Both the position numbers and the translations under genes were made by a program. This document shows positions 18,235 through 61,963 of a stretch of DNA of 64,000 nucleotides, piece after piece (positions within the stretch are counted from its first letter, which is position 1; every line of letters starts with the position of its first letter). Source of the stretch: Clostridia bacterium (GTDB taxonomy: Bacteria > Bacillota > Clostridia > Christensenellales > CAG-138); the NCBI GenBank assembly GCA_036677445.1, contig JAVBWI010000027.1, positions 21,453 to 85,452 of the forward strand, read 5' to 3'. Under the pieces are notes generated by a model that was not told the DNA's origin, made no database searches, and was given only the letters and a program-made list of their open reading frames with translations.

Positions 18235-20847
18235 ATGAGAAGAAAGCCGGTCGCAATCATAGCGGGCGTCCTCGCCTGGCTGATGCTGTGTGGTACGGCG
18301 CTTGCCGCCAGCGTGGACATAGACGACAGCAACAAATCAGTCTACGCCAACGGAAACGCCATCACAATCAAGGCGGACGACGCGGACCCTGCCAAAACCA
18401 TTGTGACCGCGGATGATCCAACCGTAACCGTTGACAGCAACAAGAACATCACAAACTATACCATTTACGGCGGCTGGAAGGATGCCAACGACACCGCCGG
18501 AGGTACATCCATCACGATTGAAGGCGGTACCGTTAACGACGTGTATGGCGGCGGCCACGCTACGGCAACAAACAACCAAACCAGCAACGCCAACGTTACA
18601 GGCGACACAAGCATTGTTGTCAACGGCGGCACCGTGACAGGCGACATTTTTGGCGGCGGCGATGCGGACAGTACTGCCGGCGGCTCTGGTCTTCAGTTTA
18701 ATAATGAAGCCAAGGCATATGCAAATGTAACCGGCAGTACCAGCATCGAAATCAACGGCGGGACTGTTGAAGGCTCCATACACGGCGGCGGCGATGCAGA
18801 TGCTACCGACAAGAGTGTTCGTGGTACTGCTTCTGCCCAAGCAAATGTAACCGGCAGCACCAGCATTGTAGTAAGCGGCGGTGAAGTGGGCGGTTCTGTT
18901 TATGGCGGCGGCGATAAGGAGACTACTAACGACATTTTGGGTAATGCCAGTGCCCAAGCCGATGTCGGCAGTACCGATATCGATATCACCGGCAGCACCG
19001 TCGGCGGCGACGTTTACGGCGGCAGCAGAGACGGCGGTATCAGCGGCAGCACCGATGTCGATATCTCTGACAGTTCTGTCGGCGGCTCCGTCTACGGCGG
19101 CAGCGAAAAAGGCACCGTCACGGGCAGTACCGCTGTCATCGTCAAAGATGACAGTACGGTTTCCGGCAACGTCTACGGCGGCGGCAGGAACGGCAACGTC
19201 GGCGGCAGTACCAGCGTCGGCATCACCGACAGCACGGTTAACGGCGATGTCTATGGCGGCAGCCGCGACGGCGATGTCGGCGGCAATACCGATGTAGCGA
19301 TCACCGGAAGCAGTGTAACAGGCAATGTATACGGCGGTGGCCAGGGTGTCTTACTTAATCCATCCGACATAGGCGGCACCACCAATGTTACTGTTATTAA
19401 CAGCACCGTCGGCGAAATCTACGGCGGCGGTGACCGCAGTAACGCAAGCGGGACATCGGTCACCATGGGGGGTACAACCGCAGCCACAGCCATCTATGCG
19501 GGCAGCCGCAACAGCGGCTGGAGCAGCTCGGCCTCCATCGTGATCACGGGCGGCACGCTATCCACCGGCAATGTTTACGGGTGGGGACGCGAGCACGATT
19601 GCCGGGCAAACATCACCACCATATCGGTGTCTTCGCTTACCGCGCGCAACTTTACCTTCTGGCTTCACCGGGACTTGAACCCGATACCGGCCATTCCGTT
19701 ATCGGGCAATTTGCAGTGGGACAGCGTAGCAAGAACAGATGCCGATCCGATTAAGGATCTCTTCCGTTTGCTGCTTCCCTACAGATTGACGCAGCCCGCC
19801 CCGCGTACGGTAACCGTCACCTTTTATTATAAGGTTGGTGGCACTACCGTTCACACAGAAGTGCATCCGTTGACCGTAGCGCCCGGCGAAAGCCAGACCG
19901 CCACCCCTATGTGGGACGGCGACGGCTACTACGATATTACCGGTAATACGGAGCCTGTAACAGTGGATTTCGGGTCTGCAAACCAGACCAGGGATATTGC
20001 GGTAACGCCCAAGACGGACACTGTGACTGTTACGTTCATATTTAAAAACGGTACGTCGGAAGTGAGCAGGCAGCAGGTCGAGTCGGAAGTGCTTTCGGTC
20101 AACAAGCTGTCCTCGACCGTGCGTGGCTCCCGCACGGAAGACGAGCACTATGAAGCCGCGGAATCCGACGTGGACGTGCAGTTCGGTCAGGCCGACTTTG
20201 AGAAGGAAGTGCAGCTCACGCCCAAGACGGACACGGTGACCGTTACGTTCATATTTAAGAACGGAACATCGGAAGTGAGCAGGCAACAGGTCGAGTCGGA
20301 AGTGCTTTCGGTCAACAAGCTGTCCTCGACCGTGCGTGGCTCCCGTGTGGAAGACGAGCACTATGAAGCCGCGGAATCCAACGTGGACGTGCAGTTCGGT
20401 CAGGCCGACTTTGAGAAGGAAGTACAGCTCACGCCCAAGACCAGAACCGTCACCGTCGTGTTCAATTATCTCTATCGCGGCAACGTCGTCCACTCCGAGA
20501 GTATACCGGTTGATGTCACCTACGGCGAAGCGCCCCGTGACATCTACCCCACCGCATGGGATGGCGACGGTCGTTACATCGTACCTTCCGAGATTGATCC
20601 CGCATCGGTCGACTTCCTGTATAACGGAGATCAGATGGTCATTCAAATCGACGTCAGGCGCGTCGCCAGAGACGATGACGATGACGAGCTCCCGCTCGGC
20701 CCCGGTACGACGGAAGAAGGCGCACAAGGCATCCCGCTTGGCGTGCCCCGCACCGACAACACGTCTTCGGCCAGCCTGCTGCTGACCATACTCGCATTCG
20801 CGTGCCTCGCAATGATCGCGGCGCTGAGAAAGGCCAACAAAGAGTAA
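18235..20847 (+). CDS. Large secreted Gly-rich repeat surface protein with sortase-like C-terminal anchor
   Basis: Signal peptide (..GTALA), many G-x-VYGG repeats, about 70-aa stalk repeats, VPRTD + hydrophobic segment + RKANKE tail; AAGGAGG RBS. Confidence 0.85.
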   Translation: MRRKPVAIIAGVLAWLMLCGTALAASVDIDDSNKSVYANGNAITIKADDADPAKTIVTADDPTVTVDSNKNITNYTIYGGWKDANDTAGGTSITIEGGTVNDVYGGGHATATNNQTSNANVTGDTSIVVNGGTVTGDIFGGGDADSTAGGSGLQFNNEAKAYANVTGSTSIEINGGTVEGSIHGGGDADATDKSVRGTASAQANVTGSTSIVVSGGEVGGSVYGGGDKETTNDILGNASAQADVGSTDIDITGSTVGGDVYGGSRDGGISGSTDVDISDSSVGGSVYGGSEKGTVTGSTAVIVKDDSTVSGNVYGGGRNGNVGGSTSVGITDSTVNGDVYGGSRDGDVGGNTDVAITGSSVTGNVYGGGQGVLLNPSDIGGTTNVTVINSTVGEIYGGGDRSNASGTSVTMGGTTAATAIYAGSRNSGWSSSASIVITGGTLSTGNVYGWGREHDCRANITTISVSSLTARNFTFWLHRDLNPIPAIPLSGNLQWDSVARTDADPIKDLFRLLLPYRLTQPAPRTVTVTFYYKVGGTTVHTEVHPLTVAPGESQTATPMWDGDGYYDITGNTEPVTVDFGSANQTRDIAVTPKTDTVTVTFIFKNGTSEVSRQQVESEVLSVNKLSSTVRGSRTEDEHYEAAESDVDVQFGQADFEKEVQLTPKTDTVTVTFIFKNGTSEVSRQQVESEVLSVNKLSSTVRGSRVEDEHYEAAESNVDVQFGQADFEKEVQLTPKTRTVTVVFNYLYRGNVVHSESIPVDVTYGEAPRDIYPTAWDGDGRYIVPSEIDPASVDFLYNGDQMVIQIDVRRVARDDDDDELPLGPGTTEEGAQGIPLGVPRTDNTSSASLLLTILAFACLAMIAALRKANKE
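20008..20433 (+). repeat. Near-identical 213 bp (71 aa) tandem duplication within the surface protein
   Basis: CCCAAGAC starts at 20008, 20221 and 20434; PKTDTVTVTFIFKNG...EKEVQLT occurs twice. Confidence 0.95.
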
Positions 20848-60026: not shown

Positions 60027-61175
60027 TTATTGCGCATTTTGCGCATCCCCCATCGCCTGCGCCATGCGCGCATAAAACGCATTTTTGCCTGCGGCGTCGC
60101 CCGTGAGCGCGGTTTGCGCCTCCTGCAGCAACGCGTCGTAATGCTGCTGCCACAGCGCGGGCCTGGGGCAAACCGGCGTGCGGTACGCGTTATAGAAGGT
60201 TTGCAGCTGTCCGTCCGCATAGTGCAGGTCTTCTGTATGCGCCACGGCGGGCAGCGCGCCCAGCGCCGTTACTTTCGCCTGCGACTGTTCCCCGAGCAGC
60301 AGCGTAATGAGCCCCGCGGCATGTTCGGCAAACCCGCCCTGCGCGCCGGCGTCGATGCCGATATACTGTACCTGCTCGGTAAACCCGCCAAGCGGCAGCG
60401 CGTCAAAAGTGAAACCGCCGGACGCCATTTTGCGGGATAAGTCGCCGAACGCCCGCCCGTCGCCGATCATGAACGGCACCTGCCCCGCCTTGAAATCCCC
60501 TTCCTGCGCCATGGCGCCCGTTAGCCCCATACGCGCGGCAACGATGGGAGGCGCGCACAGCGCGCCGTAGCGCGTTGTGGAACGCGAATCCATCGCCGCC
60601 TGCAGCACGTCCGCAAGCGCGGAGGGCTCCCCCGCCTTCACCGGCGCCGCCGCGCCCACTTCCGGCCAGGCTAGCCCCAGTTCCTGCACCAGCACGGTGT
60701 TGCCCAGCAAAAAATAGCCGCTGTACAGGTATGGCGCGGCATACGCCGTACCCTCGGAGGACAGCGGCAGCATATTGCCCGCGAAGGCGGGCAGCGTGAG
60801 CGAAAGCGGAGCAAACTGCTCCGCCGTGAGCTCGCCCATGGGGAATGACCACGCATCCGGACGCTCGCCGCGGGAAAGGCGCTCCTGCACGGCCTCGGCG
60901 GTCAGCCCCAGCACCTCGATGTATACGCCCGCGTGCGCGCGCTCATACTGGGAAGCGACGTTTTCCAAATAAGACGTGATGCTTCCCTGGCAGGTCTTAA
61001 ACCCCACCACATGCCATACCGTGATGACGCCGCTCCACGCTTCCTTTTCGCCGGAGAGCCATTCGCGGTAATAATTGCGCCCCAGCGCCCCTTCCAGATA
61101 GGGCGGCGCAAACACAAGAAACGCCACCAGTATGGCGGCCACCGCCGCACGCAGCACCAGCGTGAATCCCTTCAT
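60027..61175 (-). CDS. Membrane-anchored hypothetical protein, extracellular solute-binding-like
   Basis: GGAGGG RBS, N-terminal TM, GVITVWHV..YERAHAGVYIEV pattern; possible in-frame TTG at 61232. Confidence 0.65.
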   Translation of the reverse strand: MKGFTLVLRAAVAAILVAFLVFAPPYLEGALGRNYYREWLSGEKEAWSGVITVWHVVGFKTCQGSITSYLENVASQYERAHAGVYIEVLGLTAEAVQERLSRGERPDAWSFPMGELTAEQFAPLSLTLPAFAGNMLPLSSEGTAYAAPYLYSGYFLLGNTVLVQELGLAWPEVGAAAPVKAGEPSALADVLQAAMDSRSTTRYGALCAPPIVAARMGLTGAMAQEGDFKAGQVPFMIGDGRAFGDLSRKMASGGFTFDALPLGGFTEQVQYIGIDAGAQGGFAEHAAGLITLLLGEQSQAKVTALGALPAVAHTEDLHYADGQLQTFYNAYRTPVCPRPALWQQHYDALLQEAQTALTGDAAGKNAFYARMAQAMGDAQNAQ

Positions 61176-61214
61176 GTCTGTCCCCCCCTCCGAGGCGTTT
61201 ACGCTCGTTTCAAT

Positions 61215-61418
61215 GTATGGCGGATCGTGCAAAAGAATACCCCCTCCGCATACACCCGCCAGTACAAGAGGCGGGTAAAAACGTATGGCGCATCGTGCAA
61301 AAGAATACCCCCTCCGCCTGCACCCGCCAGAACAGGAGACGGGTGAAAACGTATGGCGCGCCGCGCAAAAGAATACCCCCTCCGCCTGCGTCCGCCCGGA
61401 CAAGGGACGGTAAAAAGG
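61215..61418. repeat. Three tandem 68 bp repeats
   Basis: Units start at 61215, 61283 and 61351; invariant 21-mer GCAAAAGAATACCCCCTCCGC; a hairpin in each unit. Confidence 0.95.
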
Positions 61419-61509
61419 GCTGGAAAATATTTTCGCGCCGTGTATAAGGCGCCTTGCACAGGGGCATACTGCATGTGGGGGAGTCCGTTTTTCACCTTTC
61501 CGAAATCCA

Positions 61510-61582
61510 TTCGACAAGCAAAGTGCAATTGAGACAGAAGCCCCCGCCTTTTTACAAAGGAGCGGGGAAATGGACAGAGAAT
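61510..61582 (+). promoter_or_regulatory. Spo0A box and sigma-H-like promoter of spoIIA
   Basis: TTCGACA (reverse complement of TGTCGAA) at 61510-61516; AGGA(61558)-17 bp-GAAT(61579). Confidence 0.6.
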
Positions 61583-61657
61583 AAAAGATAGGCTTGTCCT
61601 AAAAGGCAGGCAATGATCAGGCAGGCCGGGCATGCGCCCGGTGAAGGAGGCGATACG

Positions 61658-61963
61658 ATGGAACTCAACGCCACCCGTAAAGGGCAGCGTGTCAAGGTCC
61701 AGCTTTCGGGGGAGCTTGACCACCACAGCGCGGAATCCGTCCGCGGAGCGCTGGACGCGCTCATTTCCGACCCGATGGTGCGGGAACTGGTGCTGGACAT
61801 GTCCGGTGTGCAATTTATGGACAGTTCCGGCCTTGGTGTGATACTTGGGCGCTACCGCACGCTCACGGAACGGGGAGGGCGGCTGCTCCTAAGCGGCGTA
61901 CCCGTCCCAATCGACCGGATATTCCGCATATCCGGCCTGTACGCGCTGGTAGAGCGGGCGTAA
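61658..61963 (+). CDS. spoIIAA: Anti-anti-sigma F factor
   Basis: LSGELDHHSAE, FMDSSGLGVILGRY. Confidence 0.95.
   Translation: MELNATRKGQRVKVQLSGELDHHSAESVRGALDALISDPMVRELVLDMSGVQFMDSSGLGVILGRYRTLTERGGRLLLSGVPVPIDRIFRISGLYALVERA

Follow-up and report, generated by a model that had tools for sequence, protein, structure and literature searches.

What do three tandem copies of a 68-bp unit contribute to the gene that they precede? The 64,000-nt stretch of Clostridia bacterium DNA analyzed here (the window) carries such an array at 61215–61418, between a gene of the minus strand (60027–61175) and the divergent spoIIA operon. From the letters alone, each unit had been described as a hairpin followed by a Shine-Dalgarno-like sequence and a TTG codon, and the original prediction proposed either a copy-number-tunable translational or RNA leader or a multi-site protein-binding platform. 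The comparisons presented here favor another answer, namely that the array probably arose in one lineage by tandem triplication of a promoter module, of the sigma-E type (mother-cell, sigE/sigK class), that belongs to the gene at 60027–61175.

Structure and uniqueness of the array

TRF called the array at 61215–61416 with a period of 68, 3.0 copies and 85% matches (score 285). On the strand of the gene, the minus strand, U1 (61215–61282) is the gene-proximal unit and is preceded by U2 (61283–61350) and U3 (61351–61418). Pairwise identity was 90% for U1/U2, 79% for U2/U3 and 76% for U1/U3, with 50 of the 68 columns invariant across the three units. The 21-mer GCAAAAGAATACCCCCTCCGC occurred exactly three times in the window, where 100 shuffles gave an expectation of 0, and an invariant run of 21 columns, given 18 variable ones, had a permutation P of ~0.007. 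The triplicated 68-bp unit and its invariant 21-mer were thus confirmed by TRF, shuffling and unit alignment. Read on the sense strand of the gene, each unit consists of GTTTTT, a palindrome, GCGGAGGGG-GGTATTCT, 14 nt and CATAC; downstream of U1 the sequence continues as ATTGAAACG...GGAGGGGGGGACAGACATG.

The unit is confined to this locus. In a search of the 3.4-Mb genome only the three tandem copies scored below E = 0.2, and a search for the unit elsewhere gave no match in 40 related genomes or in the genome_contigs and metagenome_contigs collections, from both of which the 21-mer is also absent. A dispersed, genome-wide repeat, one of the outcomes that had been named as fatal to the original prediction, was not found. 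The array shares with REP/BIME and MITE-like hairpin repeats a GC-rich hairpin in a repeated intergenic unit, but unlike them it is present at a single locus of its genome and in none of the collections searched, which rules out a repeat of that kind. An assembly artifact was likewise ruled out because two other assemblies of the same species also have three units: L091, a public assembly in which the array is identical to that of the window, and L089, in which the flanks are 100% identical. Elsewhere in the window, TRF reported repeats at 18966–19337 and 20005–20441 (78 bp × 3.8 and × 2.4, with 70–74% matches, and 213 bp × 2.1, with 95%), which probably lie within a large surface-protein gene.

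The gene and its spoIIA neighborhood

The product of the gene served by the array (60027–61175, minus strand) is 382 aa long and combines a membrane anchor at its N-terminus with a MalE-like solute-binding fold. It matched no family of Pfam or NCBIfam; its homologs gave sub-threshold SBP_bac_8 hits, and the AlphaFold model (pLDDT 90) resembles MalE-like sugar-binding proteins. No ABC transporter genes adjoin it. Homologs are present in 75 of the 101 genomes of the family and were found divergent beside spoIIAA at 17 of the 23 loci examined. Its distribution follows that of spoIVA: of the 87 genomes with spoIVA 72 have the gene, against 3 of the 14 without spoIVA (Fisher p = 1e-5). The gene may encode a new sporulation protein of this clostridial family, with expression predicted to be sigma-E dependent.

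To the right of the array lie spoIIAA (61658–61963), spoIIAB and sigF, as identified by Pfam and NCBIfam. Conserved alignment blocks and a pattern scan of syntenic loci placed the spoIIA regulatory region at 61442–61584 on the plus strand. It comprises a sigmaF/G-like site, GTATA-15-GGGCATACTG (61442–61471), located ~40 nt upstream of an 0A box, TTCGACA (61510–61516), and a sigmaH-like site, AAAGGAGCG-11-AGAGAATAA (61556–61584); the two sigma assignments follow the consensus sequences of these factors. At the corresponding position, 9 of 16 syntenic loci from several genera carry GWATA-15-GGnCAnACT, and a conserved sigmaF/G-like site there suggests that spoIIA may be subject to forespore autoregulation without a dacF gene.

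Candidate sigma-E-type promoters in the three units

In published sigma-E promoters a gap of 12 ± 1 nt separates an 8-mer -35 element from a 10-mer -10 element, and the latter is common to sigE and sigK (PMC517825, PMC3789822). A candidate of this type was recognized in each unit on the minus strand. The gene-proximal candidate, P1, has its -35 octamer GGTATTCT at 61234–61241, within the invariant 21-mer, followed after 14 nt by the -10 octamer CATACATT at 61212–61219, which spans the proximal edge of the array and sits 44 nt before the ATG of the gene. P2 (61280–61309) and P3 (61348–61377) repeat this arrangement with GGTATTCT at 61302–61309 and 61370–61377, a spacer of 14 nt, and CATACGTT at 61280–61287 and 61348–61355. 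The -10 element of both is completed by the junction of two units (CATAC + GTTTT), which yields CATACGTT; the CATACG of P2 is also present in the spoIID promoter of the same genome. Both CATACATT of U1 and CATACGTT of U2 and U3 fit CATAcAnT. The -35 octamer lies at a spacing of exactly 14, but in it TAT replaces CAT; it shares ATTCT with spoIIIAA and spoIVA.

Other sigma factors fitted less well. A scan found no sigma-70-type promoter anywhere in 61100–61700. By eye, a sigma-K reading of the unit was rejected, the 'AC' of the -35 being absent at the required distance, and a sigma-G/F reading was rejected because sigma-G spacing and the -10 do not fit.

A strict genome-wide regular expression for a perfect sigma-E consensus returned only 10 hits and was uninformative. 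In its place, four canonical sigma-E-regulon genes of this genome were located directly, and a PWM was used. The sequences upstream of spoIID (GTCATCAA-14-CATACGCT), spoIIIAA (AACATTCT-13-CATACATA), spoIIID (GACATAAC-14-CATAAGCT) and spoIVA (TTCATTCT-17-CATATATA) have the same shape as the unit sites, with the difference that the unit -35 has TAT and these four promoters, like most orthologs, have CAT. The PWM was built from 16 sites, comprising 13 ortholog promoters and three of the four reference promoters, with the window and L029 excluded. P1, P2 and P3 scored 14.0, 13.2 and 13.2 bits with this matrix and were the top three sites of the 482-bp intergenic region on both strands, a ranking that is partly circular in that the training sites were chosen by eye with consensus-guided spacing. 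Sites of ≥14.0 bits are expected 0.02 times per 85-nt upstream window in the non-ORF DNA of this genome. The training sites themselves mostly self-score 16–20 bits, above the 13–14 bits of the unit sites, which score lower because their -35 reads TAT, not CAT.

The upstream regions of orthologous genes point the same way. CATAnnnT was found on the sense strand between -100 and -15 at 15 of 23 orthologous loci, against a shuffle mean of 2.05 (maximum 7 in 2000) and a count of 2 on the antisense strand of the same loci, which are phylogenetically related and so are not independent trials. At most of the loci bearing the motif, xxCATxxx lies 13–15 nt upstream of it. In the MAFFT alignment, GGTATTCT-14-CATACATT falls column for column with the GGCATGCA/GGCATGCC-14-CATATATT of genus-level relatives, so that the -35 and -10 blocks of the units and of these relatives are positionally homologous. 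Only GGGGGTATTCTTTTGC and GCCATAC, the -35 and -10 blocks, are unchanged in all seven copies of the unit compared from three lineages; the spacer and the palindrome vary, which makes the invariance of the two blocks selective.

In genera whose intergenic region spans 140–210 bp (L073, L078 and L076), the sigmaF-like promoter of spoIIA and the sigmaE-like promoter of the divergent gene overlap, facing each other, and the 0A box adjoins the -35 of the latter. These loci do not give clean support, because their CATA motif overlaps the sigmaF-like promoter on the other strand.

The unit sites thus resemble the sigma-E promoters of the B. subtilis and C. difficile regulons in their 8-mer -35, the ~14 nt to CATA, the -10 CATAcAnT and a location 30–65 nt before the start codon (PMC517825, PMC3789822). 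They differ from them in the TAT of the -35, where CAT/ATA is conserved, and in standing as three tandem copies produced by duplication, and their dependence on sigma-E is a prediction. Sigma-E RNA polymerase would be expected to use them.

The repeated TTG codons and the start of the gene

The features from which a translational leader had been proposed are present. On the minus strand all three units read GGAGGGGG-TATTCTT-TTG, and GGAGGGGG-7 nt-TTG has good Shine-Dalgarno geometry in each. The three TTG codons (61232, 61300 and 61368) lie in three frames (counted from the ATG at 61175: 0, 2 and 1); the proximal one is in frame with the gene and would add 19 residues, and the ORFs opened by the other two stop at 61199 and 61210, all as originally described. 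The public (NCBI) annotation of the gene also begins at TTG 61232, giving a protein of 401 aa (P0030, MHDPPYIETSVNASEGGTD-MKGF...). According to the leader model, the array would be transcribed as a 5′ leader, its repeated Shine-Dalgarno-plus-TTG modules would serve as alternative starts or upstream ORFs, and their effect could be tuned by copy number; transcripts from P2 and P3, if those promoters fire, would indeed include the module of U1.

Comparison with relatives makes this model highly improbable. The one unit of L029, the closest relative, lacks GGAGG and has GGGCGGGGG there. Furthermore, TTG 61232 shares the frame of the gene only if the G-run at 61182–61188 (minus strand) has 7 G, as it does in the window and in L091. 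L089, L090 and L029 have 6 G, and with 6 G the TTG frame stops at a TGA overlapping the ATG. Such an ATGA arrangement could couple translation, yet the relation of the TTG frame to the gene flips with a single nucleotide among strains, a difference that is either real strain variation or a homopolymer sequencing error. An alternative start, an N-terminal extension and a leader peptide were all rejected, given the loss of the frame in L029, L089 and L090 and of GGAGG in L029. No promoter candidate was found upstream of the array on the strand of the gene, and no Rfam covariance model gave a hit approaching its gathering score in 60900–61800.

The ATG and the N-terminus, in contrast, are conserved in all orthologs, and we regard GGAGGGGGGG as the true Shine-Dalgarno sequence of the gene (with the ATG, 61173–61191, minus strand). 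The 19-residue extension would precede the Met-Lys start of the membrane anchor that is conserved in every ortholog, each with its own Shine-Dalgarno sequence. TTG 61232 falls in the spacer of the predicted P1, upstream of the predicted P1 start. The deposited 401-aa start is therefore probably wrong, the conserved start being ATG 61175 and the product 382 aa. The GGAGGGGG...TTG pattern is best read as the G-rich flank, -35 element and spacer of a promoter, not as a translation start, and the invariant 21-mer is the predicted -35 element with its flanks. With neither GGAGG nor the TTG frame conserved, no Rfam match and weak evidence for the hairpin, the translational or RNA leader of the original prediction was not supported.

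The palindrome

Each unit carries a palindrome upstream of its candidate promoter. In U1 (61254–61276) ACCCGCC-N9-GGCGGGT is perfect and ends 12 nt upstream of the -35 octamer of P1; in U2 (61322–61344) it contains one G·U or mismatch, and in U3 (61392–61410) it is reduced to 6 pairs, so that the degradation toward the third unit noted earlier was borne out. Fold z-scores on the sense strand of the gene were -2.5 for U1, -1.3 for U2 and +0.6 for U3. A functional RNA structure was rejected, since U1 alone folds better than shuffles and the evidence from G·U pairs versus mismatches conflicts on strand, favoring opposite strands in U2/U3 and in L029. An intrinsic terminator was also rejected: the hairpin leads into AAAAAC on the plus strand, the T-run of the minus strand lies ahead of the hairpin, and a terminator scan of the array found none.

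The palindrome could instead act at the DNA level. In B. subtilis the core of the SpoIIID binding site is GGACAAG. On the plus strand the hairpin loops read AGTACAAGA (61261–61269), AGAACAGGA (61329–61337) and GGACAAG (61398–61404), and are loosely SpoIIID-box-like. A regulator-binding platform, in which the palindrome is a functional element bound by a dimeric regulator, or by SpoIIID at the loop, and in which triplication multiplied operators between divergent sporulation promoters, would accommodate this likeness, and also the retention of the palindrome in U1–U3 and in L029, where its register is shifted and its arms are changed. The palindrome would be centered near -62 relative to each predicted promoter, where activators typically bind. 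Nevertheless, no part of the unit evolves faster than the palindrome, which decays in U3 and is unrecognizable in genus-level relatives; nor is it enriched elsewhere in the genome, which excludes a regulon-wide operator. The loops (GTACAAG, GAACAGG and GGACAAG) match the C. difficile SpoIIID box, KRTAACARK (PMC5025042), only loosely, and a SpoIIID box in the loop was rejected as a short and imperfect match. A binding platform is accordingly improbable as the explanation of the array; the protein-binding function proposed earlier holds in the generic sense that each unit has a predicted sigma-factor site (-35 and -10) and an upstream palindrome.

Copy number and history of the array

L029, a Logan contig with 93% protein identity, has the same flanks as the window and exactly one unit. 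The window, L091 and L089, all from one species, showed no difference in copy number, and in L090 (98.4% protein identity) the contig breaks inside U1, making it uninformative on this point. The L089 array shows seven differences from that of the window, six of them confined to U1 and U2: GTATG and GCAGG are swapped between these units, and U2 has one extra G. Variants exchanged in this way indicate conversion between units. The array is thus real and specific to a species-level lineage, old enough for its units to have diverged and still recombining. The original prediction had also held that a leader should be abandoned if the array were lacking in relatives and lay upstream of the transcription start; relatives lack the multi-copy array, which lies upstream of the predicted proximal start.

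These comparisons support the following history. A 68-bp segment that begins shortly before the palindrome and ends after five bases of the -10 was duplicated twice, and each junction, CATAC|GTTTT, rebuilt the -10 as CATACGTT. The predicted result is three sigma-E-type promoters in series, 68 bp apart. P1 would be the ancestral promoter, with a predicted start ~30 nt before the ATG. Transcripts from P2 and P3, if these are active, would have their 5′ ends at or near the stem-loop and would read through P1, and expression in the mother cell might be higher or otherwise altered.

Like VNTR-type intergenic arrays, this one has units that are arranged head to tail and recombine with one another, and a close relative differs in copy number (1 versus 3). 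Unlike those arrays, its units are long (68 bp) and diverged (76–90% identity), which makes slippage unlikely, and no copy-number polymorphism was seen within the species; a contingency-type VNTR was rejected on the latter ground, since only L029, at 93% identity, has one unit. The copy-number tuning originally proposed was partly supported, by the one-copy relative and the exchange of variants between units; copy number did not vary among the three assemblies of the species.

The main rival to a functional promoter triplication is a neutral relic. In this reading the duplication is real and contains a promoter, but P1 alone works, and U2 and U3 are inert passengers kept alike by gene conversion, with no regulatory consequence. 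The exchange of GTATG and GCAGG in L089 lends it weight, as conversion could homogenize the promoter blocks, and the invariance of the P2 and P3 blocks could be due to conversion rather than to selection. The decay of the hairpin toward U3 and the fact that the nearest relative manages with one copy are also consistent with inert copies, as is the 23-bp × 2 tandem duplication that another genus carries in the corresponding intergenic region. We nonetheless regard a neutral relic as unlikely. The units have diverged by 10–24%, yet seven copies show zero changes in the 16-nt -35 block or in GCCATAC; the 7-nt spacer between these blocks varies, and a conversion tract should not pass over it. In addition, the junction-built -10, CATACGTT, keeps CATA...T and resembles the -10 of spoIID, CATACGCT.

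The duplication in the other genus was observed in the leader of the ortholog in a relative with 68–70% protein identity (L064, 646–690, and L030, 647–691, of the oriented upstream extracts), where a run of GGAGGG × 2.5 is also present. Small tandem duplications thus recur in this intergenic region.

At the other extreme, the array might be a recombination-active promoter cassette of adjustable copy number that sets the mother-cell dose of the uncharacterized, sporulation-linked binding protein, with the 6/7-G run of its ribosome-binding site switching P2 and P3 transcripts between the 19-residue-extended isoform and a coupled upstream ORF. This is the least probable of the readings considered here. 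If true, it would place heritable tuning of dosage and isoform inside a developmental program that is usually thought to be hard-wired.

Discussion

The P1 and P2 promoters of rRNA operons are a familiar example of promoters in tandem. In the E. coli kps PR1 region, three promoters likewise stand in series for one gene, with upstream transcripts reading through the downstream promoters (PMC5738388). The kps and rRNA promoters have distinct sequences and distinct regulation, whereas the promoters predicted here are diverged paralogous copies of one module, placed exactly one unit apart.

The reading of the array as a probable sigma-E-type promoter triplication has consequences for annotation. 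A G-rich promoter flank can mimic a ribosome-binding site, and the gene start should be corrected to ATG 61175 (382 aa) in place of TTG 61232 (401 aa). If all three copies fire, the locus would illustrate from nature how promoter dosage can evolve in a developmental regulon through tandem duplication, and would offer a convenient natural comparison of one copy with three. The neighboring gene family, unstudied and widely conserved, may be a more interesting lead than the array itself.
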